Shown here: piece by piece, positions 26,405-51,207 of the stretch
Layout of the letters: every line of letters starts with the position of its first letter
How positions within the stretch are numbered: the first letter of the stretch is position 1
Source: a virus
IMG/VR virus record: IMGVR_UViG_3300014613_000001
Coordinates: 1-64,000 of that record
Direction: 5' to 3' (one strand)
DNA: 64,000 nt
Notes under the pieces: generated by a model
What the model was told of the DNA's origin: nothing
Seen by the model: only the letters and a program-made list of their open reading frames with translations
Databases searched by the model: none
Translations under genes and position numbers: made by a program

Positions 26405-29400
26405 ATGCCAATGAGCTCTCATCAGATAACCGCGTTGGCCATGCAACAGCAGGCGTTCTTTGGTAACGCCGCGGCTTATGCGCAGCAGATCACACCCCCG
26501 CGATCAGGCGGCGGGTACGTGACAGGTGGAGCTCCACAGCCGCCGCAGCCGATGATGGCGCCGCAACCCGGGTACAGCATGCCGATGCAAGGAGGGATGC
26601 TGGGGATGGCGGACGCAGCGATGAGCGGACACGCTCAGTACGCTCCTCAAGTCTTCGGAGAGCAGCTCGCCGGCGGCGGTATCAGCGCCATGCAGTCGAT
26701 GATGGGCGGGATTCATGGTCTGGCCAACATGGGGACCATGGCCGCCGGAGTCAGTATGATGGGCGCCGGAGCTCTTGGGGCGATGGGTATCGGCGGAGGC
26801 ATCGCGGGGTTGACAGCGCTTCCTATGATCGGAGCTCCTATTGCAGCACTGGGTAGCATGGCAGCTCTCCCGATTGTGGCTGGTCTGGGTGGGGCCGCGT
26901 GGTCAGCAGATCAGGTAGGGGCGGGCTTTCAAGAACGACAAGCTGTCGGACAAGTCATGCGCAACCGCTTTGGCGGGATGGGCATAGGACAGGGGCGGGG
27001 AGGATCAGGATTCAACGCCAAAGAGATGGGGAGCATGTCGACCATGGTCCGGGAGATGTCCGGCAACGACATGTACACCGGATTCGACGAGCTCACCCGC
27101 ACTCTTGATCGCACGGGGCAGATGGGGTTGTACCGCGGGGTTCAGACCGCTGGCGAGTTCCGGGAGAAGTTCAAGAAGACGGTTGAATCCCTCAAAGAGA
27201 TCGCCAAGACCATGCACACCTCACTCGAGGAAGCGACGACCTTCATGGAGGCCCAGAGGAGCATGGGGTTTTTCAGTGGCAAGGACATCTCCGATTCCCT
27301 CACCCGTACTCGATTATCTGCTGGCGCCAGTGGGATGTCCGTTGGTCAGATGCAGCAGATCGGAATGCAGGGATCGCAGACCGGACGCATGATGGGGATG
27401 CGTGGCCGCTCCGGAGCTCAGGCGATGCAGGAGATGGCGACGAACGCCGGCATCGCTATGCAGACCGGTGTTCTTTCTGACGAGATGGTGGCCGAAGCCA
27501 CGGGTGGGGCTCAGGGGGCCGAGGGCGCTCAGATTCTTGCCGGTCGACGGATGCAGGCGGGCAACCGCTTCTTCAGCAGAGGAGCCGGAAGAGCTCTGTT
27601 GGCGGGCCTCTGGGATCCGGAGACAGGGGGGATCAACCAGGATGCACTTCAGCAGTCGCTCGCCGGTGGTATGTCGTTCCGAGGAGCTCTCGGTCGTGGA
27701 CGCGCCAACATCCGAGCTACAGGTGGGCACAACAGTGAGTTCTTCGCCCAACAGGAGCGCATCTCTGGCGAGCTGATGAGTACTGGCCAGGGCATGAACG
27801 TCATGCTCGGCATGATGGAGGGGCACTATGGGAAGCGTGGATGGAATCTGGAAGATCCAGCCATGCAGCGATCACTTCGCAAGCGTTTCGGCCGAAGCCA
27901 GGCCGAGATAGAGGCGGACATCGCCGAGTACCGAGCTCTCCCGAGGACCATGGCGCAGCGCCGTATGCGCTTCAATCAGCAAGCGGACAACGAACAGCGT
28001 ACCCAGGCACGAGAGGGGTCTGGAGTTGGCGGTTTCACTCGTCGTCTCCAGAACACGTTCGAGAAAGAGGTGGAGAATCCCCTTCGTCAGGCCGGTGATG
28101 ATCTGACGACTGCGATCGCATCTGAGATCGAGCAGATGCGCAACGATCTCGAGGGCCGTATACAGGTTCGAGTGACTGAGGCCGGTCAGGCCACAGCCCG
28201 GGACATTGCGTCTGGGCGTAGGGGAGCACGCTTCTCTGGACTCAGCGTGTCGGAGATGAGAACGGTCCGAGCCCAAAATCCCGAAGGGACCATGGCGAAC
28301 CTCGGACGACGTTTCGGTATTCGCGGTCAAGACTCGGCTACACGGTTGAAGTCCATGGGGATAAGCACGGAGGGTATGAGCGCCGCGGCAATTGATGACC
28401 GCCTTGATCGAGTGTCTCGTGAGCGTGATATTTCTCTTTCTGATCTTGGGTTAGACAGCGGCGGAGCTAAGGAGATGGGCGATCGGTTATCTCAGATCGT
28501 CACCATGAATCAAGAGGCTGGCCGGGTCGAGGCTCCGGGTCTGTGGGGGCAACTCTGGGGCGAGACGACAGACGTCAACGCAGTCGCACGAACACGTGTT
28601 GAGTACCTTCGAGGTCAGGATGCCGATTTTGCAAGACGTACCTCTGGCATGACTGAACAGCAACGTATTGGAGCTATGCAGACGGTCATTGGTGATCGGC
28701 TAAAGGGGAAGTTTGCGCTGCCAGGTCTCGAGGGGGGCGGCTCTACCGGATTCGCTGATCTTGCATCTCTTGCCGCAGCTCAGAAGACAACTCGGGGTCA
28801 GCTCGGCAGGATGGTGACTCGTAAGCGGACAGCGGCTGAGTCCGTGGGCAAGGTGGCTGTGACGGGAGTGGGCCGTTGGGGCGGATTTTTAGCTGGATCT
28901 GTGCTTCCAGGTGCGTTCGCTTCTCAGGGTCTAAGCATGATCGGCGGTGAGGCTGGTCGTCGAGTTGCAAAGGCGATGGGCCTTGCGCGTGGTGCACTGA
29001 GCGGGGATATGTCCGGTCTTATCGAACGTGCCCACAGCAATCCGCCGCTGCTCGGTCAGATCGAGAAGGCTATGGGTGGAGATGTTGCAGCTCGGACAGC
29101 ATTGGCTAACATGGCTGAGGACCCGGATGCCGATCTCTCAGAGTCACACAGAGAAGCTCTGAGCGCCCTCATGGAAAATGCCACAAACCCGGAGGTCAAG
29201 AAGGTCTTCGAGCAAGAGCTTCGCCAGACGGCTTCTATGGACGACACGCTCATCCGCGTCCGAGACAAGAAGATCGGGGCGCGTCTCGAGGACTTTGTCG
29301 GGACCAGGCAAGTTCGGATCAAAGGGGCTGTGGGAGCAGAAGGTCTTGCTGCTCTCAATAGTCTCGCGGCATTTCAGCGCGCGGGCACTGGAGACACCAA

Positions 29401-30076
29401 TCAGTTGAACGAGCGGCGCCGAGCCTTTGTTGCAGGTGTCGCCGGAAAGAAGGGGGCTGGCGAGCTCCAGGGTATCCTCGCTGCTGATACGACAGGTGGC
29501 GGCACAGCGTTGGCTGAACAGCTCCGGGTCACGGACACACTGCTGCAAAAATTTGATCAAGGGTCCGGCCGACGTGCTGGCGGTAGAGGCGGTGCGTTTC
29601 TCAGAGAGTCTTTGGTGGAGTTGGGTATTGATCCATCCGGTCTCAGACAAAAAGACATGCAGGCCTTCCAAAAGGGCGCGCTCTCTGCTGACGACATCAT
29701 GGAGACGCTACGCAAAACCAAGGGCTTAGAGAAGACGACCGTCTCCGATGAAACTCTGAAGAACTGGCTCGGTGATGTAGTGAGTGCGCAGAAGTCCGGC
29801 GGCACTATGGAGCGCAAAGAGGCTCTTTCGCTCGGACTGAATCTCGGCGGGGGCCGTGCAGAAGCCCTTCGCCAGTCAGGTGATCGGTCTGAGGCTGATG
29901 ATCTTCCTGATCTGGCCCGGAAACAAGTGGCCCATTTGTCCGATATGGTCACACTGACGAAGCAATTGGTGACCGGGAACAAGCTAAACGCCGATGCCAT
30001 TTCTAAACTGAATCTGAACGTTGATATTACGACGCCACCTGCTGGTGATGTACCCGAGGTGCCGCCAACACCCTAA
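26405..30076 (+). CDS. tape-measure-like protein
   Basis: 1223 aa, Gly/Ala/Met-rich and helical, hydrophobic stretch near the N-terminus, first gene of the virion block. Confidence 0.6.
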   Translation: MPMSSHQITALAMQQQAFFGNAAAYAQQITPPRSGGGYVTGGAPQPPQPMMAPQPGYSMPMQGGMLGMADAAMSGHAQYAPQVFGEQLAGGGISAMQSMMGGIHGLANMGTMAAGVSMMGAGALGAMGIGGGIAGLTALPMIGAPIAALGSMAALPIVAGLGGAAWSADQVGAGFQERQAVGQVMRNRFGGMGIGQGRGGSGFNAKEMGSMSTMVREMSGNDMYTGFDELTRTLDRTGQMGLYRGVQTAGEFREKFKKTVESLKEIAKTMHTSLEEATTFMEAQRSMGFFSGKDISDSLTRTRLSAGASGMSVGQMQQIGMQGSQTGRMMGMRGRSGAQAMQEMATNAGIAMQTGVLSDEMVAEATGGAQGAEGAQILAGRRMQAGNRFFSRGAGRALLAGLWDPETGGINQDALQQSLAGGMSFRGALGRGRANIRATGGHNSEFFAQQERISGELMSTGQGMNVMLGMMEGHYGKRGWNLEDPAMQRSLRKRFGRSQAEIEADIAEYRALPRTMAQRRMRFNQQADNEQRTQAREGSGVGGFTRRLQNTFEKEVENPLRQAGDDLTTAIASEIEQMRNDLEGRIQVRVTEAGQATARDIASGRRGARFSGLSVSEMRTVRAQNPEGTMANLGRRFGIRGQDSATRLKSMGISTEGMSAAAIDDRLDRVSRERDISLSDLGLDSGGAKEMGDRLSQIVTMNQEAGRVEAPGLWGQLWGETTDVNAVARTRVEYLRGQDADFARRTSGMTEQQRIGAMQTVIGDRLKGKFALPGLEGGGSTGFADLASLAAAQKTTRGQLGRMVTRKRTAAESVGKVAVTGVGRWGGFLAGSVLPGAFASQGLSMIGGEAGRRVAKAMGLARGALSGDMSGLIERAHSNPPLLGQIEKAMGGDVAARTALANMAEDPDADLSESHREALSALMENATNPEVKKVFEQELRQTASMDDTLIRVRDKKIGARLEDFVGTRQVRIKGAVGAEGLAALNSLAAFQRAGTGDTNQLNERRRAFVAGVAGKKGAGELQGILAADTTGGGTALAEQLRVTDTLLQKFDQGSGRRAGGRGGAFLRESLVELGIDPSGLRQKDMQAFQKGALSADDIMETLRKTKGLEKTTVSDETLKNWLGDVVSAQKSGGTMERKEALSLGLNLGGGRAEALRQSGDRSEADDLPDLARKQVAHLSDMVTLTKQLVTGNKLNADAISKLNLNVDITTPPAGDVPEVPPTP

Positions 30077-30085
30077 GGAGTTCGA

Positions 30086-30370
30086 ATGACAACCTACGGA
30101 GACGGAATCGGGCAGGTCTACACGAAGTCGGTTGCGGCCGAAGACATCGGTGTAGGCAGACGCGAGAAGCGCGTGATCACCATCGTAGGTGGTCAGCAGG
30201 TGACGTTGATCGTGCGGGACACCATCGTCCCGGAGGATCCGTACCTCAACCTGGTCCGAGCTGCCGCCTACCCGTTCCAGATAGGGGCGAGTGCCGCAGC
30301 CAAGTTCCCCGTACCTCCAGTGCCCACCGCGCTGAAGGATGTTTTGATCAAGTCCTCCATCACGATCTGA
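30086..30370 (+). CDS. small virion-associated protein
   Basis: TAAGGAG RBS. Confidence 0.5.
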   Translation: MTTYGDGIGQVYTKSVAAEDIGVGRREKRVITIVGGQQVTLIVRDTIVPEDPYLNLVRAAAYPFQIGASAAAKFPVPPVPTALKDVLIKSSITI

Positions 30371-30377
30371 GGATCAC

Positions 30378-31673
30378 ATGACAGTATTCATCGAAGCCAG
30401 GACCGAGCCCTTCCAGCGATCTCGGGAAGAGTACGCAGAGCGAGGTCGACAGAGTGAGACGACCCAAGCTGTACGTCGTCCGCATCGTGGGTACCAGCTG
30501 AAGGAGGACACGTACGCTGTCATTCGTGTCATGGGTCCGAACGGCGACTTCATGGAGGTCATCGACGCTGCCGGTGCATGGGCCCCCACCTCTCCAGGCA
30601 CCGAGAACTACACGACGCACTACACGAACTTCTTCGTGCAGCAGATTTCAGAAGAGCGTCACGAGAAGCAACAGGTCGTGGACACCTTCGGGGACAGCTT
30701 CATCTTCTTCTTCGGAGAAGCCCCTCGGATGCTCAGGGTCAGCGGGTTGTTGCTCAACACCGCGGACTTCAACTGGCGCAACGAGTGGTGGGCCAACTAC
30801 GAGCGGTACTTCCGAGGTACGAAGCTGGTCGAGCTCGGCGCACGACTGTATCTGATCTACGATGACAGGATCATCGAGGGGTACATGACTGGAGCTCAGG
30901 CAAATGACAACTCGCAGCAGAAGGAGGTCATCCAATTCAGCTTCTCGATGTTCGTGACCGGCTCTACCGACATCTCTGCGCTCGGTGATCCCAGATTCCC
31001 ATCTCCCACGGATCTCGACTACACGCAGTTGAGCTCCTACGAGGAGGCGTTGAAGTTGTGGGAGAGCAACCGGAATCTGCAAAGGGAGAACACCACCCGG
31101 GCTGTCGCTGCCGCGAATCGTCTGGCCTATCTCGGGTCCGGAGGGTTGATGAGCAGCGTGATCAGGAGTGGTATCATCAACGGTGGTGATCCGTCTGTAG
31201 CGGGGTTCGTTGCTCGGGCATCTGCAGCTCTCCAGACGGCATCTGCAGTCGTTGATGGTGTACGTCAGGTTTCCGGCAGGATGGGCTCTTCGGGGATCAG
31301 CAGGAAAAAGCCGCTGCGCTCGACGTTCGCTCAAAACGTCGATGAGTTCATCGGCTGGGACACAAGTGGTACTGCGAAGGAGCTCGCTGCTCCGTTGTCC
31401 ATGCAGGACAGGTGGTTGATGGCGGACCGTTCTTTCGATTCCGGCATGTCTGGTATGGTTCCTGGTTTCGACGCTTGTACCCCGGCGTACTGGGATACAA
31501 TGGGACGTGTCGGTCGGGCTTCGTCAGAGATCCGAGAGCGCGGAGGCAACAGAGCTCGCACCCCGCCGACCAGCAGGGGTGTCGCCATCGGTGACGCAAG
31601 TGCCCCGAGGCCGCCCATCTATGCACGTGATGTGCCCTTCGGCATGTCACTGCTCGAGGGAGATCTGCTCTAA
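30378..31673 (+). CDS. putative tail/baseplate-associated protein
   Basis: 431 aa directly after the tape-measure-like gene; beta-rich N-terminal domain. Confidence 0.45.
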   Translation: MTVFIEARTEPFQRSREEYAERGRQSETTQAVRRPHRGYQLKEDTYAVIRVMGPNGDFMEVIDAAGAWAPTSPGTENYTTHYTNFFVQQISEERHEKQQVVDTFGDSFIFFFGEAPRMLRVSGLLLNTADFNWRNEWWANYERYFRGTKLVELGARLYLIYDDRIIEGYMTGAQANDNSQQKEVIQFSFSMFVTGSTDISALGDPRFPSPTDLDYTQLSSYEEALKLWESNRNLQRENTTRAVAAANRLAYLGSGGLMSSVIRSGIINGGDPSVAGFVARASAALQTASAVVDGVRQVSGRMGSSGISRKKPLRSTFAQNVDEFIGWDTSGTAKELAAPLSMQDRWLMADRSFDSGMSGMVPGFDACTPAYWDTMGRVGRASSEIRERGGNRARTPPTSRGVAIGDASAPRPPIYARDVPFGMSLLEGDLL

Positions 31674-34600
31674 TGCCATCCGCCCAACATCTTCGTCTGC
31701 GCTGTTTCATCGAGGGTATCGAGGTCCCGATCATTTCGGCGTCCGTCTCGATCCAGCCGGACTCGCCGGCGCAGTGTCAGGTTCAGATCGTAGCGACGGA
31801 CAAGGGGCATGATCTTCTTCCTCGATCACTGATCCACGTCTTCTTTGCCGACTTCTACGACGGGCCGGAACATCGTCAAGAAGGGGTCGAGGAGGCTGCG
31901 CAGGTCTCGACATCGGATGTAGCCGCCGATGAGGAGAACAGGACTCCGGAGACGACAGATCCGGACATGGACACGTTCTTCGATAGTCGCTCTGGTTCTG
32001 CCCTGTTCGAAGGATCCGATGAGGCTGTGACCTCTGATGAGACAGACGTGACTCTCGACCGCGGTCCTCAGAGCGCCGGCCCGACGACAACCCCCGAGCT
32101 CACCGGACAAGAAGAGGACACGGACGAAGAGCCCTCTATTGCTGACTCGAGGTGGAAGCTCTTCTTCTGCGGCGAGATCATGGGCTACCAGTTCGTGAAG
32201 AGTGTCGGCCAACGCGCCATCATCCTGACCTGCATGGACCTCAGCGTCATGTGGGACACCTGTTACCAGTACCAGGTCGATGTTGCGAGCTTGCATGGAA
32301 ACGGGACGGCCAACTTTGTCGGCGCCGGCACGAACCTCTTCGATACGTTTTTTCAGAGCTCGACCTCGACGCTCGTCGACATCGTGATGCAGCGCTCTCG
32401 CGCACGACCCGAGCTCACCGGGCTGTTGAGCGGTATCGTCCACCTGCTCGAGAGGGTCGGAGGGGTCTACAACAACCGGGGCTTCCGTGGGGTCAACGAC
32501 TTTTTCACGATGGCCGAGCTGCGTTACCACCTGATCGACATGATCGGTGCGTCAGAGGACGACAACTCGAGCCAGCGGCTCTTCCCACGACAGGCCTTCA
32601 ATCGGTGGACACGCGGATCAGGGGGCAGGCTGGGCAAGATCGCCTCCTTCCGTGACATCCTCGGGCTGCTCTGCAAGTTCATCTTCCACAACACGTTCCC
32701 GTGCCCGATCGCGTACTACCAGCGGCCTGACACCATAGATCGAACGAGGACGGTGGCGTACTCGTCTACTCAGCAGTTCAGCTCAACCGCTGAGTGGAGG
32801 GAGTTGAACGGTCGGATCGACACCCATTGGAGGTCGTTCAACTCGTACGTCGGATCCAATACGCCGATCAGCTCGGGTCGGGTGTCACGTCAGCTCGATT
32901 CGTTGGCCACGCAGATCGTGGCAACGAAGGACGCGGTACAACAGCACAGTGCTAGGTACAGCTTGGCATCTGCGACAAATGCTCTCCATCATGCGGGGCA
33001 AGAAGTACGAGCGTTGGCATCCCATCTTAGCCGGGTTGAGGGTGATCCGGAGGGTGGGGACGTGACGTACAGTTCATGGGCTGCCGGCTCCACTCCTGCT
33101 CCCAGGATACAGAGGGCACGTGATGGCTTTCGCACCGCCATCCAGGCACTGCAGGGGGGAAGTCATAGCTCAAGTGGAAATCGGGAGCGCACCGATACGG
33201 TCGTTCGTCATGGCCGGCTCTATTCGCAGATCATCAGGCCGGACATCTTCATGTGCGCCCCTCCATGCTGCAACGTGCTCTTCCCCGAGCTCTACTCCAG
33301 CTTCCAGTTCTCTCGCCAGTACATGCGGGAGGTCACGAGGATGCGTCTGACGGTGTCAGACGAGATTTTCGGGCCTGACGTCTTGCTCAACAGTGTCTAC
33401 TTCGCTCCGGACGTCGAGGTATTGGGCGCGCGCGTCCAGCAGGGGCGCCATGCGCAGGACAATGCAGAGAACGCTACCTTGAGCAGGGCGGCGTACGGCC
33501 GGCGGCTGATGGAGCACGAGCTCTACACCGGACCGATCCCGGTGTTCGAGCGGATGAACGAAGTGAACATCATGGCTGCTCGTGGGGCTCAGACGAACTT
33601 TCGTGGAGCTCGTGTCCCCTACGCCATGCGCGCGGCCCACTTCCAGTTCTACAAAAATCGTTGGTCCTCCCGCTCGATGGCAGTGACGGGGAAGTTCAAC
33701 CCATGGGCGGTCTGTGGTTTCCCGGCAGTGGTCGTCGACCGATACATGAACGAAGAGCAGCTCATCCTCTCCGGTCTCCGAGGCCAGCGATTTCTTGAAG
33801 AGGCGTTCGAGCGGGACTACCCAGGGATCGTGCAGAACGCCGACGACGAGTTCACCTACGACTCCGAGTGGGGTGCTCTCGATGCTTGGGATATCCTGAA
33901 GAACACAGTGCCTACACAGTTCGTAGGTCTGATCATGGGGTTGACCCACCAGATCTCACAGAATTCGGCCAGCACCTCGTACCAGTTCACCGCCTCTCGG
34001 GTCCATCGGGACAACGACGTGCTGCTCGGCGCCAACAGGATCAGGGCCAGTGCCCCTCCGGTACGCAGGGAGCACGTCGGCACGGTTTCCTACACGGCTA
34101 CCGGAACGGGCTCCCGGGCTCAGTCTGATATCCAAGGTCATCTCAACGCGCTCAACCAGTATGCCGGTGCGGAACCGGGGTCGATCGCTGATCTATCGAC
34201 ACGGCTGTCCGTGCTTGCGAGCGGTATTGAGCGAACGAAACGTGCGTTGGAGGGATCGGGAGATCGGGAGCGAAACAATTTGCAGAGTGCGTTCCAGGAT
34301 TTGCACCAGGCCGGCAGATCTGTTCTGACCATGGCGCGTCTTTCTCGAATGAACGATTCTGGCGGCGGTACTTCCTTTGCCTATGAGGTGGATCAGTTTG
34401 ACCGCGCTACGAGCACGGCTCGTAATCGTCTTCAGTCAGCTCTCGATATAGTCCAGGGTGCTTCGAGCAGGAGGAGGAGCGTTGCTGCTGAAGTAGAGGA
34501 GCCGGACGAGATAGACGTCCCTCTCGAAGATTTCATCCGTCCACCGTGGATGGCCGACATCTGGGCTAATGATCGTATCGGCGGGGTGTACCAGCAGTTC

Positions 34601-35311
34601 TTCGGGACTGGGGCGATCACTGATCCATCAGTCATTAGCACCGGATATGAGACCGCGGTCGATACAATGGACGCTGCGGCTCAGGATGCCGATGAGGATC
34701 GCCCACTTGAGCCGATTCCATCTGAACTCGGTCTCGGAACTGAGGGTGAGGATCCGGCGCTTCGCCCTTTACCCTCGGATCTCGAGGACCCAGGGTCTCT
34801 GGATCCGATTCGTCAAGATGGTCGTGCAGTCCAGAACGCAGAGATGGGGATCTCTGTTCAGCGCGCCATCGATTTGCTCATCCGCTCTTACAGTGCGATC
34901 AAGGCTCAGGAGGGCATGGACATCAACGAGTTCGTCCGCGCCTACACCTGGAGACCGGTGGCGAACATGACTGACATCCTCGGGGGTCGTGATCTCACGA
35001 TAGATTCGGACACCGGGGTGGCTACTGGGCAAGAGGGCTTCCACAGTCGAGCTTTCGGCAGCGGCCCCAATGGTAGGAACCTACGGAATCTGCTTCCACC
35101 TGATTCAGAGGGACGTCCTGTGAGACGTATCCTTGGGATCAGTACCGAGAGCAGCTCACGTCTCGAGGACGGCCGAGAGGCAGCTCTATCCGAAGAGGAG
35201 AAGCAGCAGGTCAGTGACGCTCTGGTGCGGCTGGACACGCGCGCGGACAAAGCCGACCGTGTTCTGGACTACGTGTCCGATCTCTGGGCCTCGAGGGGTC
35301 TGCTCGGGTAG
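31673..35311 (+). CDS. putative baseplate hub-like protein
   Basis: 1212 aa; N-terminal LRCFIEGIEVPIISASVSI...LFFCGEIMG...ILTCMD resembles hub/gp44-like starts; position in the tail operon. Confidence 0.45.
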   Translation: MPSAQHLRLRCFIEGIEVPIISASVSIQPDSPAQCQVQIVATDKGHDLLPRSLIHVFFADFYDGPEHRQEGVEEAAQVSTSDVAADEENRTPETTDPDMDTFFDSRSGSALFEGSDEAVTSDETDVTLDRGPQSAGPTTTPELTGQEEDTDEEPSIADSRWKLFFCGEIMGYQFVKSVGQRAIILTCMDLSVMWDTCYQYQVDVASLHGNGTANFVGAGTNLFDTFFQSSTSTLVDIVMQRSRARPELTGLLSGIVHLLERVGGVYNNRGFRGVNDFFTMAELRYHLIDMIGASEDDNSSQRLFPRQAFNRWTRGSGGRLGKIASFRDILGLLCKFIFHNTFPCPIAYYQRPDTIDRTRTVAYSSTQQFSSTAEWRELNGRIDTHWRSFNSYVGSNTPISSGRVSRQLDSLATQIVATKDAVQQHSARYSLASATNALHHAGQEVRALASHLSRVEGDPEGGDVTYSSWAAGSTPAPRIQRARDGFRTAIQALQGGSHSSSGNRERTDTVVRHGRLYSQIIRPDIFMCAPPCCNVLFPELYSSFQFSRQYMREVTRMRLTVSDEIFGPDVLLNSVYFAPDVEVLGARVQQGRHAQDNAENATLSRAAYGRRLMEHELYTGPIPVFERMNEVNIMAARGAQTNFRGARVPYAMRAAHFQFYKNRWSSRSMAVTGKFNPWAVCGFPAVVVDRYMNEEQLILSGLRGQRFLEEAFERDYPGIVQNADDEFTYDSEWGALDAWDILKNTVPTQFVGLIMGLTHQISQNSASTSYQFTASRVHRDNDVLLGANRIRASAPPVRREHVGTVSYTATGTGSRAQSDIQGHLNALNQYAGAEPGSIADLSTRLSVLASGIERTKRALEGSGDRERNNLQSAFQDLHQAGRSVLTMARLSRMNDSGGGTSFAYEVDQFDRATSTARNRLQSALDIVQGASSRRRSVAAEVEEPDEIDVPLEDFIRPPWMADIWANDRIGGVYQQFFGTGAITDPSVISTGYETAVDTMDAAAQDADEDRPLEPIPSELGLGTEGEDPALRPLPSDLEDPGSLDPIRQDGRAVQNAEMGISVQRAIDLLIRSYSAIKAQEGMDINEFVRAYTWRPVANMTDILGGRDLTIDSDTGVATGQEGFHSRAFGSGPNGRNLRNLLPPDSEGRPVRRILGISTESSSRLEDGREAALSEEEKQQVSDALVRLDTRADKADRVLDYVSDLWASRGLLG

Positions 35312-35321
35312 GATGTAGGGG

Positions 35322-38300
35322 ATGGACAAGCCGGCGGCAGGAAAGCAGACGAGCGGTTTCATGAAGTCCCGATCAGGGACCAGGCCCTACCGCGTCGAGA
35401 CGCTGCTCAAGAGAGAGCCCTCCAAGAAGCCGAGTGAGGTGCTCAATCCTCTCAGCAGCGCTGAGAAGAAGTACGCCAAGGCCATGGTGCAAGACGAGGG
35501 TGGCGGGGAGTTCGTCAAGAAGGGGGAAGCCGACCTCAAGAATCAGTGCTTCTTTCGCTCTGCGACGATGGCTGCGCTGAATCCGGAGCTTCGTCTTTTC
35601 AAGGGTCAGCACTCCGGCCAGTCGGCAGGGGACACCGGTCATTTCTATCTGCAGGATCCGGCGGGGAAGGTCATCGACCCGACGGCATCACAGTTCAAGA
35701 CGGGCAGGCTCGTGGATCGCGGGTATGAGGTGTCCGTCGCAAAGAACTTGGATTATGTGATCTCAGATCCACTGTTCAGGACCATGTCGAAGACAGATCA
35801 GACGGCCATTCGATCTCTGCAGAAGAAGGGGGAAGCTGCGGAAGGTAGGGATGCAGTACGTCACGTTCTCATCACCGGACTGCCAGCGGCCGGTAAGACG
35901 ACAGAGGGGAAGAGGCTATCCAAAGAGACGGGAATGCCACTCATCTCGTTGGACGGCTTGCCGAAGTCCTACCAGGGCCCAGGTAAATGGGTACGGACGG
36001 ATGGCGCACGACGTTTGATGTCGGAGCTCGATGAGCCACATATCATCGAGGGAACGCAGCTCTTGGGTCTAAGACCTGATGAGATCAAAGGTCATGACTT
36101 CCATGTGCTCGAACAACCGAAGAACGTCATTATTGATCGCTTGGTCGATCGTGGATGGAAGGATGATCAGGGCAAGCTCCATAAGGGTGAGTCACAGAGG
36201 GGGGCGGCAGGAAAGTTCTACTATGAGCATGAGCGCTGGCTGAAAAACCCAATGAAGAAAACGGCTGCCGTAGACCTCGTTCACCTCCAAGGCGAGGAGG
36301 CACAGAAGTTCGGGCAGCAGTATCCCGATGCCAAGGTGCGGCAACGTGATGTCATCGCCGCGGTCAAGGGCGGCAAGTATATCGGGGGCATAGCTGTGAA
36401 ACCCGGTCCTGATGACTTCACGAAGAAGATCTTTGGCGAGGTCGCGCCTAACCGTCCGTCTTCCGGGCACGTCTCGTACCTCCATGTCGATGACGATCAG
36501 CGGAAGCAGGGGATCGGGCGAGCTCTGCTCAACGAGGCGCTCAAGGGTCGGCCAAACCTGACGCTCGGAACGGATAATCGGGGGGTAAACACCGATGAAT
36601 CTGCGGTTAGGCTATACGAGAAAGCGGGATTTGAGCCACTGAAGAAGGAGACGAGAAGCACCTATTGGATGAAGAAGGAGGGCGAGAATCTTCTTCCCCG
36701 TCCCAACGAGTTCGCTCCCGGCATCCGCAAGGAGCGCCGTATTGAGCCTATTCCCGGGGTCAAAGAGTCAGGGCCAAACACGGCGTGGACCGCCAGCCTC
36801 TCCAAGCATCCGGCCGCTCGGCGGGGTGATCATCTCGATCTGAGGCTCGTCGACGAAAAGGGTCGTGCACACTCATGGGCGCTCAAGGCAATACCCGAGC
36901 CCGGGAAGAGCACCTACGCGGCTCAGATGCCCACGCACTCCGGGAAGTACGCCAAGAAGACGAAGCCCTTTACCATCCCTCTCGGCGTGTATGGAGGCAC
37001 AAGGCCGGGTGCTCAGGTCGAATCGGTGTACGTTCAGCCGGCAGAGGTCATCTCGGCCAATTCGAACAGGGTTCACATTCTTCGTCATCATGGTCAAGAG
37101 ACCGAAGAGCTGGTCATGCGCCGGCTGTCTGCTCCTCAGTTGCCTGGATCTCGGCCCCAAGCTCCGCTGTGGGCCCTCCATAACGCGACGAGGACGCGGG
37201 AGACGAAGGACGGAGGTCTTCTTCCGGATAGCAAGCCCAAGTACCGGGAGCAGACCGTAGACGTGGTCGACTTGGGTGACACCTCCACGATCATGACCCC
37301 GAAGCTCGATGGGGCACACGTCTTGGTGCAGTTTCCAAAGAGCGGGAAGATGCAGCGCGTCTTCTCCTACCGTCCGACCGAGAGAAATGGTGGCCTGATC
37401 GAGCACACCTTCAAGTTCCCCGGCTTCCAAAACAGGAAGACGCCCGAGGGCCTTCAGGGTACAGTGATCAGAGCCGAGGCTTGGGGGACCGGTCCGGACG
37501 GCAAGGCTATCCCGGCTTCCGAGCTCGGAGGTTTGCTCAACTCATCGGTGCCGAGGTCCCGTCGTGATCAAGAGTCTAGAGGTGTGACGTTGCGCCTGAC
37601 AGGACATGATGTAATCCGTCACGGTGGCATGGATTACAGCGCCAAGGGGTTCGAAGATAAGCTCCGCGTCCTCGAGAAGGTTCGCAAGCAGACCAAGGGG
37701 ACGGTGGAAGCTCCCATCACTGCCCGCACCCCAGAAGAAAAGATGAAACTGTTCGAGAGCATAAAAAGTGGAGTGTTTCCGGACACTAAGGAGGGCGTGG
37801 TGCTTCACTCCATGCTCCCTGCCGTTCCCCCCACGAAGGTCAAAATCAAGCAGGACGACGATGTGTACGTCCGAGGTGTCTACAACAAATCGTCGAAGGA
37901 CAGTGCCGCGGGCTTTACCTACTCCCTCGATCCTACGGGGCCGATCGTGGGGCGCGTCGGTACTGGCCTCTCCTCTCAGATGCGACGCGAGATGTCCGAG
38001 GCTCCGGAGAAGTTCGTAGGCAGAGTGGCGAAGGTACAGTCAGCCGGTCGGCACCAACCCCGTGGAGGTGAGCCCGGAGCTCTCGTCGGGTCCCCCGCGT
38101 TCAAGGAGTGGCACATCGACAAGACACCTCCTAAGTTGTTGAAGGAGAGTGCGGTCCGTATCAGCGTGCCGTTGGGGCTCGGGTTCATTTCTGCAGGGAC
38201 GGCTGCCACTCTTCAGTACAAGAAAAAACAGAAGGAGCTCCAGGAGCTGAAGGATCGAAGTCCGATACAGCGTACGGGGGCTGTTTTGGCGAATCGTCTT

Positions 38301-38657
38301 CGACAGGATGTCAGGGGGACGACGGGGGGATTCTCAGAACAGCGTGTGGGGGCTGCTATGGCGGCGCGTCTTCGTGATGAGATCAGAAATACGGTTCGCG
38401 GAGATTTCGCACGTCGTAATCCTGGTCTCTCGAAGAAGGGATCGGAGTTTGAGAAGAATCTCGATCCTATGAACTACCTTCCGTTCGACAGCAAGTACAT
38501 GCAGGTCGCGCTCGACATCGCCGAGACCCGGCCAACTGTGAAATTGCTTGGCAGGACGGTTCGTGGGGTCAGGAGCCAAGCCGGGAATATCAAGGAGTTC
38601 ACGAAGGATAGAGCTGGTGATCTCCAGAGATTCGTCAAGGAGAGGAAAACGAACTGA
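35322..38657 (+). CDS. multi-enzyme polyprotein: Cys-His-Asp domain, P-loop kinase, GNAT, LigD 3'-phosphoesterase, ATP-dependent DNA ligase, TM segment
   Basis: GLPAAGKT (Walker A); QRKQGIGRALL...AVRLYEKAGF (GNAT); KHPAARRGDHLDLRL...HSWAL...HSGKY...IPLGVYGG (LigD PE); TPKLDG, EGVVL, KIKQ, GRVGTG (ligase adenylation and OB fold). Confidence 0.8.
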   Translation: MDKPAAGKQTSGFMKSRSGTRPYRVETLLKREPSKKPSEVLNPLSSAEKKYAKAMVQDEGGGEFVKKGEADLKNQCFFRSATMAALNPELRLFKGQHSGQSAGDTGHFYLQDPAGKVIDPTASQFKTGRLVDRGYEVSVAKNLDYVISDPLFRTMSKTDQTAIRSLQKKGEAAEGRDAVRHVLITGLPAAGKTTEGKRLSKETGMPLISLDGLPKSYQGPGKWVRTDGARRLMSELDEPHIIEGTQLLGLRPDEIKGHDFHVLEQPKNVIIDRLVDRGWKDDQGKLHKGESQRGAAGKFYYEHERWLKNPMKKTAAVDLVHLQGEEAQKFGQQYPDAKVRQRDVIAAVKGGKYIGGIAVKPGPDDFTKKIFGEVAPNRPSSGHVSYLHVDDDQRKQGIGRALLNEALKGRPNLTLGTDNRGVNTDESAVRLYEKAGFEPLKKETRSTYWMKKEGENLLPRPNEFAPGIRKERRIEPIPGVKESGPNTAWTASLSKHPAARRGDHLDLRLVDEKGRAHSWALKAIPEPGKSTYAAQMPTHSGKYAKKTKPFTIPLGVYGGTRPGAQVESVYVQPAEVISANSNRVHILRHHGQETEELVMRRLSAPQLPGSRPQAPLWALHNATRTRETKDGGLLPDSKPKYREQTVDVVDLGDTSTIMTPKLDGAHVLVQFPKSGKMQRVFSYRPTERNGGLIEHTFKFPGFQNRKTPEGLQGTVIRAEAWGTGPDGKAIPASELGGLLNSSVPRSRRDQESRGVTLRLTGHDVIRHGGMDYSAKGFEDKLRVLEKVRKQTKGTVEAPITARTPEEKMKLFESIKSGVFPDTKEGVVLHSMLPAVPPTKVKIKQDDDVYVRGVYNKSSKDSAAGFTYSLDPTGPIVGRVGTGLSSQMRREMSEAPEKFVGRVAKVQSAGRHQPRGGEPGALVGSPAFKEWHIDKTPPKLLKESAVRISVPLGLGFISAGTAATLQYKKKQKELQELKDRSPIQRTGAVLANRLRQDVRGTTGGFSEQRVGAAMAARLRDEIRNTVRGDFARRNPGLSKKGSEFEKNLDPMNYLPFDSKYMQVALDIAETRPTVKLLGRTVRGVRSQAGNIKEFTKDRAGDLQRFVKERKTN

Positions 38658-39412
38658 TGAACGCTGTCCTCGACTTTCTGCAGGACGAAAAAGACCGAAT
38701 CGAGAAAGAGGCCACTTCTCGTTCGGAGAAGGATCTTGAGCTCTGGCAGCGATGGGATCAGAATGGCCGGCAGGCGGAAGATCTTGATCCGTTGATGAAA
38801 CAGCTCACGCCACTCATACGGAAGCAGACGAACATCTACTCCGGGCACGTGAACATTCCGAAGCCTGCTGTCGAGGCTGAATTCCAGATCCAGGCGATCA
38901 ATGCGTTGCACAAGTACGATCCTAAGAAGGCGGCGCTGAATACCTTCCTCACCCATCAGCTCAAGAAGGGGAAGCGCTTTATCTCGACCTACCAAAACAT
39001 CGGAAGGATCTCTGAGACTCGTATCTACAAGATCAACGAGTTCCAGAACACTCGTGATCTTCTCGCGGACAAGCTCCGTCGTGATCCATCCGCACACGAG
39101 ATCGCCGACGAGATGAAGTGGCCCGTTCGTCAAGTCACGGCCATGGAGCAGGAGATCCGGCGAGATGTCCCGACGTCGACCTTGATCACAGGTGGGATGG
39201 AGGAGATCCGTCCTTCGAAAGAGGGCGAAGTGCTTCGCTTGCTCCAGTATGATTTGGATCCGGAAGAGAAGCTCGTGTACGAGTATCTTCTCGGAGAGAA
39301 CGGCAAGCCGCAGTTGAAGCCCGGGGCGATCGCCACGAAGATGAACATCAACCCCTCGAAGGTTTCTCGTATCAAGGCCAGTATCGCGGCAAAGGCTAGG
39401 AGGTACTCGTGA
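38657..39412 (+). CDS. sigma70-family RNA polymerase sigma factor (FliA/SigB-like)
   Basis: ALHKYDPKKAALNTFLTHQL (region 2), LRRDPSAHEIADEM (region 3), LDPEEKLV...IATKMNINPSKVSRIK (region 4). Confidence 0.85.
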   Translation: MNAVLDFLQDEKDRIEKEATSRSEKDLELWQRWDQNGRQAEDLDPLMKQLTPLIRKQTNIYSGHVNIPKPAVEAEFQIQAINALHKYDPKKAALNTFLTHQLKKGKRFISTYQNIGRISETRIYKINEFQNTRDLLADKLRRDPSAHEIADEMKWPVRQVTAMEQEIRRDVPTSTLITGGMEEIRPSKEGEVLRLLQYDLDPEEKLVYEYLLGENGKPQLKPGAIATKMNINPSKVSRIKASIAAKARRYS

Positions 39413-41781: not shown

Positions 41782-42062
41782 TGATCCCAGTAGCAGCGTT
41801 CTTTCTCATGGCGAGGCAAGTTGTCCGAGGGGCGCAGATGGAAAAGATCCGTAATGCGACACTGGCCCGGGCTGCGGCGACAGCTGTACCTGATGAACAG
41901 GGTGCTCGGATCTCAGGTCTTCAGAGGATGCGTGCCAACAGCCGTGCTCAGATGAATGTGGAGCTCGCGAGTCGAGGATTGGCGATGCCGGGTATGGACG
42001 GATCACCAAGTGCGGCGCACATTCAGGCTGCCGCCGCGAAGTCGAATTCTGTCGGCATGTGA
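41781..42062 (+). CDS. hypothetical protein
   Basis: TAATG coupling. Confidence 0.4.
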   Translation: MIPVAAFFLMARQVVRGAQMEKIRNATLARAAATAVPDEQGARISGLQRMRANSRAQMNVELASRGLAMPGMDGSPSAAHIQAAAAKSNSVGM

Positions 42063-42077
42063 TCTCACCAGGAGTGG

Positions 42078-43040: not shown

Positions 43041-43378
43041 TGGTGGTGCTGCAGCAGCCGGATGAGAACTACTGGGAGACGAGGAAAGAACTCGAGGCAT
43101 CTCAGGCGATCTGGCGCAGCATCTTTGAACGGGCTGTGCGGGACATCGTCACGTATCGTGATCAGCGGACACCTTACCGGAAAAAGGTGCACGAGACGGC
43201 ACTCAACTGGGCCCTGTGTTGGGACGATTCTGATCGGGATCAGCTCTTCACCTTTCCGTGGATCTGCGACACCTTGGGCTGGGACCCCGACAAGGCAGCT
43301 CGTCTCATCTGGGAAGCGCGGAGGACGAATTTTGAGTCTCTGGCAGACGCTCTGAAGGAGCACGACAATGGCGTATGA
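43037..43378 (+). CDS. conserved phage hypothetical protein
   Basis: IW..IFERAVRD...FPWICDTLGWDP pattern. Confidence 0.5.
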   Translation: MMVVLQQPDENYWETRKELEASQAIWRSIFERAVRDIVTYRDQRTPYRKKVHETALNWALCWDDSDRDQLFTFPWICDTLGWDPDKAARLIWEARRTNFESLADALKEHDNGV

Positions 43379-47358: not shown

Positions 47359-50300
47359 ATGAGCATCGTGAACTGGAGACTTTTCATTCAAGAGCGCCTA
47401 CGGGCCATGGACCCTTCCATCAATCTGGATGTAGGTTCATCTGCCTCGATTCAGGTCGTGGAGCCCATTGTCGCGCGGCTTACCCCAGATCCGATCGACG
47501 CCAACATCGAGCTGTTCATCCTCACTCGTCTTCGGCAGGAGTTCCCTGAGATGTTCGCCGAAGAGGGCGGGGCGATGTCAGACATGCTCGTCAAGCCGGC
47601 TCGGGTTCTGCTTGAGCCCTTTCGACGTGAGATCAGATCAGTACGGATGCAGCTCTCGCTGAGTGATCCGAATCAGTTGGCGAATGATGAAGCCGACAAG
47701 CTCATGTCGAACTTCTTCTTCGAAAGGAACGCTGGAGGATACGCCAAGGTTCGGGTCAGGATTTTTTACCAGAACGCGGTGAGTCAGACGGTGGGGAGTT
47801 CGAACATCGCCTTCACCGGAACTGGACTTCGGTTTTTCCCGACGCACGCACAGGCGATCACATCTGAGGGGATGCTGTTCAACGTCGATACTTCGGGGCT
47901 CTACTACTTTGACGTTTCATATCAGGCTGAGCGACCTGGGGCGGCGTATAACGTCGCCAAGAATGCCATCATCGGCGTCACAGGGATCTCGGCCGCGACG
48001 AGGGTCACGAACCTGGCCAAGGCCGTCCCAGGAAACAGCACGGAGAGCACGTCGGACTTTATCGCACGCTGCGAGACGTCCATGGGTGAGAAGTCGAACA
48101 ACACGCTCAACGGATTGATCGCGGTCCTAAGGGAGAACTTCTCCAGTCTTCGGGTTCTGCAGGCCATAGGTTTCAACGACGCTGAGATGCACCGTGATGT
48201 GATCGTGGGTGGGAGTTATGGTCCGATTCTCTTCTCGGACACGAAGGGGAATACAGTAGCGGATGGAGCAGCTCCTGTCGGGTACACGCCATATCTCGAC
48301 TTCGGGGGTACGATCAGCTTTACGACGGCGTTCGGGCCAGTCGGAACAGACATCTCGGGCTATGCGATAACGGTCTGGTATGACGATGGGACGGGGATGG
48401 CGCCGCACACGTGGCAGCTTGGCGAAGTCATCAGCGCCATACGGATCACGGTCCATTCGAGTTACACTCGGCTGGAACTTCCTTCGGACGCGATCGTCCA
48501 GGAGCTTTGGTCCATTCGAAAGCGGGATGTCATCACCCTGTCGGACATGCCCGGGGGTCTCCTCTTCCCAGACAACTTGACGTACGAGACTGTCGACGTT
48601 CCCTCTAACGAGATTCATGTAGGGGGTTGTGTAGACGTCTATGTCCGTGGCGGAGAGATCACGGACGCCGTTCTTCCGCTCACCCTGATTTCCGACGACG
48701 ATGTCATAGCGCGACGTGAAGATGCGCAGACGACCGCAGCTGACGATGAGGTTATCCTGAACGACCTCACGGCAGCCGAGTGGGCTCTGGTCGTGGAGGG
48801 TTCGACGACTCTCTATCTCGAGGAGGGCGGTGATGCCGGGCCGTACAGGGTTATCGAGAAGGTTGCTGGAGGCCCACCGTATGCTGTCCGTCTCGCATCC
48901 GCCATGACCGCCCCGGGGGTTGTGACGGACATCTCCTATCTCCTGGTGGACGACATCGACATCGATCTCGTGTCACCTCGGGAGATGCGCTACTCGGGCA
49001 GCGATCTTCAGACAGTGGCCGGACTCGCTACGATACAGACCGTCAGCGGCCTACCCAGCTTCACAGGAGTAGGAGTCGTCGACACCGACCTCGTTCGCAT
49101 CCTGAGCGGGGATGACGAAGGAGAGTACGGCATCTCTGCCGGAGGGGTTGCTGCCGGATCTATCATCCTCGCATCTGGTATGACGACGACTGCTTCTCCT
49201 CTTGCGTACGAGATCTACCGAAAGGAGGATGGCATCAAGCGCCCCCTTCTTCGGGTGAAGACGGTGGAGCTCCTGGACAGCAATCTCGATCCGACCGGCG
49301 CCTTTGTGCCGTACCGCCATCCTATCGACGTACGCAGCAACAGTTTTCAGAACCCCGGGAACGCACCGAAAGCCGGGACCGAAGTGTCGGTCACATCGGA
49401 TTCCTACCTGTCCAGCATAGCTGGCTCAGCTACGTTGACCGCCGTGGATTCCGCGGGTGGTGCCGTGGTTGAAATCGGAGGTCAGCTCTCGTGGTATGCG
49501 CTGGGTGTGCGCACCGGGGATATCATCAATCTGGATAGCTCGGACAATCAGGGGTACTACACGATCGTCGAGGTCGGCGGGAACCCTCTAGCGCTCATTG
49601 CTACTGATCTTCAGTTGATCGTAGACGCAACCATGGAGACTACAGAGACGGCCATCGCGTACACCCTCGGCCCGCCCTCCTATGGTTCTTTCAGGCTGTA
49701 CTTCTTGGATCCGCTGACCTTCGAGGCGACCTATGCTTCCACGCAGATCTCTGTTGAGGTCGGTCTGACTACGCGCGTCTTCCGCCCGGATTCTGGTGTG
49801 TGGTGTGAGTATCTGCCATCGGATACGCGTACCGCTGTGGCGTCAATGACGAGCGGAGGTGCAAGCGCATTCATCGTTCCTTATGATCTTGGGGGCGCGC
49901 CAAACCTCGATATGATGACCTATGGGATTGCGGTCGACGACCGTGTCGAGATCACGTATGCGCCTCTTGTAGGATCTATCGACATCGCCGTGGCCGGTCC
50001 TCTCAACCTGGATGGGCTGTCTGTGTTGATTGATGTTGGTAGCGGTAATGAGACGGTCACGTTCTCGGGGACGGCCTTGGATGCCGGGACCATTGTCTCA
50101 CAGCTGAACTCGGGCCTCAGTAAAGCGGTTGCCTTTGACTACAGCCCATCCGGTTTCCCTGCGGAGCACTATATTGGTTTGCGCGGGGACCATCAGATCA
50201 TTATCAGGAACAACGCGGTTGCTGGTGACGCTACGGCGACAATTTTCGGGCAGAAGGACACGCACAACCCGTGGCTTCCGGCCGCGGGGTTTGCTGGTGC

Positions 50301-51207
50301 TGATGTAGATAATGACTCTCCTGAGAAAGGGTTTTATCTCGTAAACTCGTGCGCGGCATTTCCAACGGGGGGCATCGAGCTGCTCATGATGAACGGAGGA
50401 CTGTGGGCTGCCGATAACCCCCCGACCTGGACAGGGAACGTTGTGGCCGAGCTCGGGCATTACTTCCACATCTCGAGGCCGGGGTTACAACGAATGAGCT
50501 CAACGGAGATGCTCGACCAGGGAGTTGACGAGCACGGGTTCTACTACTTCGATGTCGAGTGCATCTCTCAAGGTCACGGCAACGCTTGGAATATCGTTGG
50601 CGAAGTTCAGGGTGTGATCACTGGCTATGATTCTGAGGGGTGGGACATCACGACAGATGATGACGACACCTCTTACTCGACCGTTGAAGAGTGCACGCTA
50701 CACATCACTCCCCGGGTGCTCATAGCAGGTGTCGAAGACGACCCAGAAGAGAAGGAGGAGCTGACCGGCCGTAGCATTCAGATTGCATATGAGCATGATC
50801 CGATCACGGAGCAGATCCAGACTTTCTTGCTTGAGCCACAGTACAGGATCCTGGTCTCGAGTCCGCTTGTCCGGTCTCTGCTGCCAGTGTTCGTCCGGAC
50901 GCACATCGAGTACAGAGGTGGCGGCACCGAGTCTTCGGTGCGTAGTGAGCTGGCAGCCGAGATCGAGTCAATCCTCCCGAGCGCGATGCTCGAGGTCGAC
51001 ACCTTGGTGGGCCTGATCCGGGCTACCGGTTCAACGAAGATCACTCACCCAGTGACACTCGTCGGGATCTCACACCAGCGGGACAGGACGATCACAACAG
51101 AGAGGTCGGTCGATCAGATTTCGAATGCGCGCCTGTCGGCGCTTATCCCAGATGATGCGGACACACCCGAAGGCGCCAGCCATATTCAGCTCACCCGGAC
51201 TTCGTAG
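47359..51207 (+). CDS. expanded baseplate J-like wedge protein
   Basis: YQAERPGAAYNV..N.I.G...VTN...PGNSTESTSDFIAR matches the Baseplate_J core; 1282 aa. Confidence 0.7.
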   Translation: MSIVNWRLFIQERLRAMDPSINLDVGSSASIQVVEPIVARLTPDPIDANIELFILTRLRQEFPEMFAEEGGAMSDMLVKPARVLLEPFRREIRSVRMQLSLSDPNQLANDEADKLMSNFFFERNAGGYAKVRVRIFYQNAVSQTVGSSNIAFTGTGLRFFPTHAQAITSEGMLFNVDTSGLYYFDVSYQAERPGAAYNVAKNAIIGVTGISAATRVTNLAKAVPGNSTESTSDFIARCETSMGEKSNNTLNGLIAVLRENFSSLRVLQAIGFNDAEMHRDVIVGGSYGPILFSDTKGNTVADGAAPVGYTPYLDFGGTISFTTAFGPVGTDISGYAITVWYDDGTGMAPHTWQLGEVISAIRITVHSSYTRLELPSDAIVQELWSIRKRDVITLSDMPGGLLFPDNLTYETVDVPSNEIHVGGCVDVYVRGGEITDAVLPLTLISDDDVIARREDAQTTAADDEVILNDLTAAEWALVVEGSTTLYLEEGGDAGPYRVIEKVAGGPPYAVRLASAMTAPGVVTDISYLLVDDIDIDLVSPREMRYSGSDLQTVAGLATIQTVSGLPSFTGVGVVDTDLVRILSGDDEGEYGISAGGVAAGSIILASGMTTTASPLAYEIYRKEDGIKRPLLRVKTVELLDSNLDPTGAFVPYRHPIDVRSNSFQNPGNAPKAGTEVSVTSDSYLSSIAGSATLTAVDSAGGAVVEIGGQLSWYALGVRTGDIINLDSSDNQGYYTIVEVGGNPLALIATDLQLIVDATMETTETAIAYTLGPPSYGSFRLYFLDPLTFEATYASTQISVEVGLTTRVFRPDSGVWCEYLPSDTRTAVASMTSGGASAFIVPYDLGGAPNLDMMTYGIAVDDRVEITYAPLVGSIDIAVAGPLNLDGLSVLIDVGSGNETVTFSGTALDAGTIVSQLNSGLSKAVAFDYSPSGFPAEHYIGLRGDHQIIIRNNAVAGDATATIFGQKDTHNPWLPAAGFAGADVDNDSPEKGFYLVNSCAAFPTGGIELLMMNGGLWAADNPPTWTGNVVAELGHYFHISRPGLQRMSSTEMLDQGVDEHGFYYFDVECISQGHGNAWNIVGEVQGVITGYDSEGWDITTDDDDTSYSTVEECTLHITPRVLIAGVEDDPEEKEELTGRSIQIAYEHDPITEQIQTFLLEPQYRILVSSPLVRSLLPVFVRTHIEYRGGGTESSVRSELAAEIESILPSAMLEVDTLVGLIRATGSTKITHPVTLVGISHQRDRTITTERSVDQISNARLSALIPDDADTPEGASHIQLTRTS

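Follow-up and report, generated by a model that had tools for sequence, protein, structure and literature searches.

Why would a phage string several unrelated enzymes, among them a predicted 3'-end-cleaning DNA ligase, along one protein chain and encode that chain among its late structural genes? The question is raised by a single open reading frame (ORF), here called P0001, in the IMG/VR virus record IMGVR_UViG_3300014613_000001. The record, from an uncultured phage, is complete at 177,773 bp with direct terminal repeats, and the window that we analysed is its first 64 kb. An earlier note, written from the letters of this DNA, had described the ORF as a five-enzyme polyprotein with an end-healing and sealing module, had suggested that it might be a protease-cleaved, possibly capsid-packaged kit, and had not recognised its architecture.

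The architecture does have a published counterpart. Polyvalent proteins of phages and conjugative elements carry 2–15 disparate catalytic domains per chain, and have been proposed to reach the host together with the DNA after packaging and processing (Iyer, Burroughs, Anand, de Souza and Aravind 2017; PMC5512222). P0001 appears to fit this class: it combines several disparate catalytic domains in one chain, it comes from a portal–terminase phage, and its modules are shuffled among its relatives. Moreover, its leader ends in what appears to be a motif also found in internal head proteins, as in the capsid targeting sequence (CTS) type of cargo of phage T4. P0001 is probably a tool kit borne in the virus particle. 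For the fuller reading, that it is a phage polyvalent protein built on a phosphoesterase–ligase anchor and would be packaged in the capsid, cut and delivered with the DNA, we estimate a probability of roughly one half.

A phosphoesterase–ligase core

Residues 456–945 of P0001 are confirmed, by homology and by modelling, as a LigD-type 3'-phosphoesterase (PE) fused to an ATP-dependent DNA ligase of predicted activity. The P0001 sequence itself is too diverged in this region for Pfam models, none of which matched, and a PHROG ligase entry matched its OB part. The assignment comes from a core profile built from 29 mostly stand-alone homologues, which matched the solved LigD PE domains 3p4h, 3p43 and 3n9b (1e-26 to 2e-15) as well as ATP-dependent DNA ligases (7e-10). 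Among the 29 homologues, Pfam recognises LigD_N (PF13298) in 25, DNA_ligase_A_M in 23 and DNA_ligase_OB_2 in 12.

The catalytic residues are intact. In an alignment of 59 sequences, five PE residues show no variation (H496, H504, D506, R508 and H539) and a sixth, Y543, is shared by at least 90%; from the motif pattern and the literature, we take these to correspond to H42, H48, D50, R52, H84 and Y88 of the Pseudomonas aeruginosa enzyme. On the ligase side K661 of the KLDG motif, E824 and G825 are invariant, and D663, G664, E719 and K839 are conserved, so that motifs I, III and V are covered. The AlphaFold model places residues 462–944 at a predicted local distance difference test (pLDDT) score above 90. 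Its ligase part matches ATP-dependent DNA ligases in the Protein Data Bank (PDB), including archaeal enzymes, T4 ligase and human Lig1, at 8e-13 by Foldseek, and viral models at 3.6e-17. The LigD PE domain turns 3'-phosphate ends into ligatable 3'-OH.

The earlier note had called a PE and a ligase with an OB fold from the letters, and had suggested structure prediction as a check; the family profile, the invariant PE residues and KxDG lysine, and the confidently modelled ATP-dependent DNA ligase fold all bear out an end-healing and sealing core. Its call for a domain search by hidden Markov models (HMMs) gave a mixed answer: the GNAT domain was recovered directly and the PE and ligase through the family profile, but not from P0001's own PE–ligase sequence with Pfam.

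A constant leader and core with interchangeable modules

An exhaustive search for homologues returned 1097 clusters at E ≤0.001, 529 of them at E ≤1e-30. The part common to the family is residues 460–945. Around this core the modules change: SNF2 helicase, NUDIX, HD, UDG, SET, GNAT, kinase and NlpC-like domains are fused on one side or the other, the kinase in few homologues only. A second constant element is the N-terminus. About 30 close homologues share the first 65–70 residues regardless of the module that follows, and this leader is basic, with the consensus GKQ.GGFMQ.R.GTRPYRVETLL, and ends in E-F-x-K-x-(A/G). Comparison of module order, which the earlier note had recommended, thus shows a shared leader and core with the other modules swapped on either side of the core.

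Distant relatives fuse the PE–ligase to InPase and 2H-SAK, hallmark domains of polyvalent proteins. Further partners among the distant relatives are an M15 peptidase with LysM (a cell-wall hydrolase), DUF192, UDG and an RNA polymerase Rpb1 domain.

Individual homologues show how varied these chains can be. P0038 and P0042 hold a 2H-SAK phosphoesterase, InPase, PE and ligase in one chain. P0045 (953 aa, on a 213-kb contig) has RNA polymerase Rpb1 domain 2 N-terminal to the core. In P0060 the core is followed by a glycine-zipper segment, a SET methyltransferase, a Cys-His-Asp domain and a GNAT domain, with K-x-A sites between them. In P0035 about 270 residues with Hint domains (PF07591, PF01079) split the PE–ligase core, and are probably an intein inside the ligase.

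A recurrent motif at the module junctions

Six similar linkers, VKKGEA, QKKGEA, MKKTAA, MKKEGE, LKESA and SKKGSE, had been noticed ahead of the modules of P0001. They begin at residues 64, 166, 311, 450, 939 and 1036, and all six fit the pattern Φ-x-K-x-(A/G/S). Their position is not a matter of chance. We set the module boundaries independently, by where homologues stop aligning (at about residues 64–72, 168–178, 302–321, 453–462 and 944–950), and the motif is present at five of these five boundaries (simulated p = 5e-6). The linker observation therefore holds, now as a property of homology-defined junctions.

The same placement recurs across the family. In 20 of 26 close homologues the motif lies no more than 28 residues before the PE core, and in 31 of 31 it lies at the ligase end, against 10.6% of background windows. 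Distant homologues have it before the core in 14 of 44 cases and at the ligase end in 41 of 77 (background 9.9%). Similarity between homologues stops exactly at ...ELMKEG(A). We considered whether the linkers might be joints of recombination at the DNA level, and rejected this since only about 15 nt are similar; the conservation of the linkers is therefore at the level of the peptide.

Beyond P0001, the motif is enriched (z = 4–5.4) in five proteins whose genes lie between those for the portal and the major capsid protein, and is not enriched in the neighbouring tail-side proteins. In the head-region proteins it mostly takes the form Φ-x-K-x-A-(S/A). Small basic proteins elsewhere in the genome have short N-terminal tags with the motif at their end. 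The sigma-70-like factor encoded directly after P0001 starts with a 19-residue tag (..DFLQDEKDRIEKEA) ending in IEKEA, a K-x-A motif.

A separate observation concerns the major head protein (genome positions 115044–116174, outside the window), whose N-terminus reads ..AEGKEKVAEFGGEY. Its EKVA-EF junction resembles the K-x-A-A-EF found before the PE core, and may be a propeptide cleavage site of the capsid protein.

One changeable gene among conserved late genes

The gene for P0001 follows three conserved late genes and precedes the gene for the sigma factor. Four related IMG/VR phages have the same order, with homologues of the 1223-, 431- and 1212-aa proteins, then the polyvalent gene, then the sigma factor, save that the 1212-aa homologue was undetected in one of the four loci. 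The flanking genes are 43–63% identical across these phages (sigma factor, 61–63%). The polyvalent gene itself differs in modules and in length, at 788 aa in one phage, 1461 aa in another and 1560 aa in two. Conserved flanks around a differing gene define a variable slot in a conserved operon.

Which late genes these are is partly annotated. PHROGs and Pfam left most of the neighbouring proteins without a name; the Baseplate_J-like gene downstream marks the block as the tail/baseplate side of the late genes, and those for the head are at 86–116 kb of the genome. The location in a virion gene block, as the earlier note had put it, is thus upheld in that the operon is late and conserved, but the block is on the tail/baseplate side, about 50 kb from the head genes.

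Proposed packaging, cleavage and delivery

In the mechanism that we propose, the protein would be made late, from the conserved structural operon, and its leader would bring it into the prohead. There the head-maturation protease would cut at the Φ-x-K-x-(A/G/S) sites between modules; the PE–ligase would stay in one piece, because no motif site lies between PE and ligase. The cleaved pieces would enter the host along with the DNA. The PE–ligase would then strip 3'-phosphate or 3'-ribonucleotide blocks and seal nicks or ends of the incoming genome, and the variable modules (here the Cys-His-Asp, P-loop kinase and RimI-like GNAT modules) would act on host or defence targets. The cleaved and packaged kit imagined in the earlier note draws indirect support from the family-wide junction motif, its enrichment in head-region proteins, the leader and the late operon, but a prohead protease was not found: Pfam searches of the genome gave no S77 or S78 match.

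Other observations also weigh against packaging and cleavage. The motif count in P0001, 8 sites where 5.3 are expected, is not a significant excess, and five of the six linker sites have Gly or Ser in place of the Ala of the head proteins. The gene is distant from the head genes, as described above. Stand-alone PE–ligases of about 450–500 aa are common and may be ordinary cytoplasmic enzymes, and several homologues begin right at the PE core, without the leader. The PE–ligase of P0001 is the sole recognisable ligase of the 178-kb genome, in which Pfam searches found no other, so that the protein could serve replication. The family is also absent from the cultured phages searched: when 50,697 of their records were queried by tblastn, with P0001 and with a typical homologue of the stand-alone kind, the sole hit was a distant ligase of Salicola phage SCTP-2.

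Several of these points are shared by the best-placed competitor, an uncleaved cytoplasmic multi-domain enzyme of repair or replication, in which the linkers would be flexible joints left by module shuffling and the late position would be incidental. The lone ligase, the leaderless 450–500-aa enzymes, the homologues that start exactly at the PE core and the unenriched motif count are all as such an enzyme would have them. We nevertheless consider it unlikely, given a 65-residue leader that is conserved whatever module follows, a motif that forms the end of N-terminal tags and shows strong enrichment among the head-region proteins, and a gene that sits in a predicted operon with conserved structural-side genes rather than in the replication module. 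Relatives that bear a cell-wall hydrolase and the polyvalent hallmark domains also speak for delivery over a cytoplasmic role.

A second possibility is that P0001 is borne by the particle and delivered through the tail or baseplate, like Mu gpN or tape-measure-associated proteins; any cleavage would then be the work of a different protease from that of the prohead. The gene does lie between large conserved late proteins and the Baseplate_J gene, the upstream 1212-aa protein gave a weak lead to a GpP-like baseplate hub, and the Gly-rich hydrophobic segment after the ligase recalls some membrane-inserting ejection proteins. The hub lead is unconfirmed by HMMs, however (no GpP-like hub, Phage_GPD or sheath came up when the genome was searched with Pfam), the hydrophobic segment is weak, and the junction motif is enriched on the head side and not among the neighbouring tail-side proteins. 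We regard delivery by this route as improbable.

We think it just as improbable that the core heals and seals RNA as T4 Pnkp and Rnl1 do, mending tRNA or mRNA that host anticodon nucleases or HEPN RNases have broken, whether the protein is packaged or not. RNA repair does follow the logic of a kinase combined with a 3'-end phosphoesterase and a ligase, and some relatives have a 2H phosphoesterase as well. The ends left by most defence DNases can be ligated without healing, which also favours an RNA substrate, and the RNA_ligase Pfam model touches 6 of the 29 core homologues. The best matches in sequence and fold are nonetheless ATP-dependent DNA ligases, T4 DNA ligase and Lig1 included, and DNA_ligase_OB_2 is recognised in 12 of the 29; only a few homologues have the kinase, which HMMs do not place with Pnk, and SNF2 and UDG, among the other modules, are DNA enzymes. 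A LigD–Ku end-joining system can be dismissed: Pfam searches found no Ku in the 178-kb genome, and Pfam scans of P0001 and of the PE–ligase homologues found no primase-polymerase domain.

Should P0001 be packaged and cut, the genome would arrive with its own nick and end repair and with lineage-specific anti-defence enzymes. The packaged PE–ligase would be the first virion-delivered DNA ligase, and such phages would inject DNA end repair before any gene expression, a previously undescribed counter to nicking or end-damaging defences. The prohead protease would likewise have a previously undescribed specificity, for Lys-x-Ala, and, across a large group of uncultured phages, head cargo could be predicted by looking for Φ-x-K-x-A in the sequence. 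More tentatively, we suggest that a broad uncultured large-phage group may pack a modular polyprotein with a constant 3'-end-cleaning DNA ligase, cut by a Lys-x-Ala prohead protease; this wider proposal is somewhat less likely than the reading of P0001 itself. The changeable slot (SNF2, NUDIX, HD, UDG, SET, kinase, GNAT) also provides a list of candidate anti-defence enzymes. Even without packaging, the family adds more than 500 clusters of phage-type PE–ligases that have no cultured representative.

Relation to known systems

Two parts of this picture are already known, the polyvalent class and the cutting of head cargo by prohead proteases in T4 and phiKZ/SPN3US. What we found undescribed so far is the PE–ligase as a fixed core, the conserved leader and the Lys-x-Ala type of junction code; a literature search turned up no relevant account of a LigD, PE or ligase in phages or virions.

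Like the polyvalent proteins of PMC5512222, P0001 has many unrelated catalytic domains in one chain, and like those of tailed phages its gene stands next to structural genes. Gain and loss of modules is likewise recurrent, the repertoire again includes GNAT, SNF2 and NUDIX-type modules, and the relatives of P0001 hold the class-defining InPase and 2H-SAK. There are also differences. In this family the constant anchor pairs a LigD-type PE with an ATP-dependent DNA ligase, neither of which is in the main text of PMC5512222. The same main text states that 2H domains had in no case been found together with RNA ligases; by contrast, 2H-SAK here stands in one chain with PE and ligase. In place of an MPTase peptidase, which is absent here, this family has Φ-x-K-x-A/G/S junctions and a dedicated, conserved N-terminal leader.

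The T4 CTS proteins (IPI–III and Alt) and the head ejection proteins of phiKZ and SPN3US are cut by the prohead protease (PMC5694885, PMC10052503, PMC7411985). As in that cargo, an N-terminal propeptide, here a predicted one, ends in a motif that is repeated in scaffold or internal head proteins. Those phages carry basic enzymes in the head and eject them, and some of their large head proteins are cut at several sites. The motif itself is different: Φ-x-K-x-A/G/S here, L/I-x-E in T4 and A/S/G-x-E in phiKZ and SPN3US. Moreover, a ligase or PE cargo has no counterpart among the known head proteins, the gene for P0001 is outside the head cluster, and its cleavage is predicted only.

P0001 shares with bacterial LigD (PE structures 3n9b, 3p4h and 3p43) the His-His-Asp-Arg-His-Tyr set and the fusion to an ATP-dependent ligase of nucleotidyltransferase and OB domains. 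It differs in lacking a primase-polymerase domain, in coming from a genome without Ku, and in its phage context and extra effector modules. Mycobacteriophages Omega and Corndog reportedly encode Ku and borrow the host LigD to circularise their genomes (Pitcher et al. 2006). The proposal for P0001 similarly has a phage apply end-joining enzymology to its own incoming genome, with the roles exchanged: those phages bring Ku and use a host ligase, whereas this one would bring the PE–ligase and has no Ku.

The combination of a kinase, a 3'-end phosphatase and a ligase also follows the heal-and-seal logic of T4 Pnkp with Rnl1 or DNA ligase, and of bacterial Pnkp–Hen1. In P0001 it is the LigD PE fold that would heal the 3' end, in place of a phosphatase of the HAD or calcineurin type, HMMs do not class the kinase as Pnk-like, and all of the parts are in one chain.

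The variable modules and the ends of the protein

All of the motifs quoted in the earlier note are present in the ORF (QCFF at residues 75–78, GHFY at 106–109, IDPTASQF at 118–125, GLPAAGKT and KLDG), and the catalytic domains follow the order that it gave: Cys-His-Asp, kinase, GNAT, PE, ligase.

The GNAT module (about residues 316–455) resembles YjaB and RimI, and its earlier assignment is secured by Pfam scores above the cut-offs (in parentheses): Acetyltransf_10 at 42.6 bits (23.6), Acetyltransf_7 at 39 (27) and Acetyltransf_1 at 33.4 (20.7). The kinase module (about residues 171–315) is less clear. It carries the Walker A sequence GLPAAGKT and, among solved structures, matches adenylate kinase 6 best (AK6; E 3.5e-4), but on AAA_18 it reaches 28.9 bits, just below the cut-off of 29.4. 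The Pnk-type model AAA_33 gives 17.8 bits against a cut-off of 27, and covers the P-loop only. Because the AAA_18 score is below cut-off, the AK6 match modest and AAA_33 confined to the P-loop, we call this module simply a P-loop kinase fold.

The Cys-His-Asp domain is common to P0001, two homologues and a solo 128-aa paralogue elsewhere in the genome, and the four sequences all retain the Cys, the His and the Asp-Pro-Thr. Its model (pLDDT 77) has the Cys at the N-terminal end of a helix, followed by strands that bear the His and the Asp. This suggests the arrangement of a papain/transglutaminase-like thiol hydrolase; the domain is conserved but matches no known family. Foldseek and VIA-align found no significant match to the model (best Z 3.9), and LapG, PeiP/PeiW, protein glutaminase, ComA-C39, staphopain and NAT recur against it at Z 2.7–3.4 only. 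A Pfam scan of the domain and the solo paralogue gave nothing meaningful, word-indexed searches with just the domain returned no hits at either near or longer lengths, and the ESM Atlas returned a YunG-like lead only, which is unconfirmed. We rejected the idea that the domain is a general processing protease, or acts in self-processing, since most homologues keep the motif and do not have the domain.

The solo paralogue is encoded at genome positions 157371–157757 on the + strand (L008:371-757), outside the window and in a non-structural region. Its C21, H51 and D63-P-T are conserved, BLASTP aligns it to residues 76–128 of P0001 at 8e-8, and it belongs to no Pfam family.

After the ligase comes a Gly/Ala-rich hydrophobic segment that had been called a transmembrane helix. 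We do not retain that call: its best 19-residue Kyte-Doolittle mean is 1.34, under the usual threshold of 1.6, and it is a weak transmembrane candidate at most. The C-terminal tail is strongly basic, as had been noticed, and helical. Every module of the 1111-aa protein has an isoelectric point (pI) above 9.

Feature coordinates and remaining neighbours

The coordinates of P0001, its modules and junctions, and its neighbours are collected below. The start codon of the ORF is taken to be right, because homologues align from residue 1–2.

Features of the P0001 locus, in positions of the window
Feature	Position	Strand	Remarks
Whole ORF, P0001	35322..38657	+	1111 aa, ATG start, open throughout; pI 9.9
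N-terminal basic leader, residues 1–70	35322..35531	+	conserved in ~30 homologues
Cys-His-Asp domain, residues 71–170	35532..35831	+	C76, H107, D119; modelled papain/transglutaminase-like topology
P-loop kinase-fold module, residues 171–315	35832..36266	+	Walker A, near-cut-off Pfam score
GNAT acetyltransferase, RimI/YjaB-like, residues 316–455	36267..36686	+	Pfam above cut-offs
LigD-type 3'-phosphoesterase, residues 456–625	36687..37196	+	H496, H504, D506, R508, H539, Y543
ATP-dependent DNA ligase (predicted activity), nucleotidyltransferase + OB, residues 626–945	37197..38156	+	K661 (KLDG), E719, E824-G825, K839
Gly/Ala-rich hydrophobic segment, residues 946–975	38157..38246	+	weak transmembrane candidate
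Basic helical C-terminal tail, residues 976–1111	38247..38654	+	pI 10.7–10.9
Junction FVKKG, residues 64–68	35511..35525	+	leader end
Junction LQKKG, residues 166–170	35817..35831	+	
Junction MKKTA, residues 311–315	36252..36266	+	canonical head-protein form
Junction MKKEG, residues 450–454	36669..36683	+	directly before PE core
Junction LLKES, residues 939–943	38136..38150	+	ligase end; 31/31 close homologues
Motif LSKKG, residues 1036–1040	38427..38441	+	within tail
Three conserved upstream late genes (1223, 431, 1212 aa)	26405..35311	+	syntenic in related phages
Sigma-70-like factor	38657..39412	+	start overlaps ORF stop codon by one base
Baseplate_J-like wedge protein	47359..51207	+	9 kb downstream of ORF

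In the related phage in which tblastn finds no 1212-aa homologue, the corresponding 1.6-kb gap (L004:8400-9995) contains no ORF of at least 200 aa. Within the window, Pfam recognises a Big_2 Ig-like domain (1.4e-5) in a 320-aa ORF at 42078–43040; the gene call there is ambiguous, since a longer ORF on the opposite strand, at 42003–43100, overlaps it. Further downstream of the Baseplate_J-like gene lies a tail-fibre-like piece.

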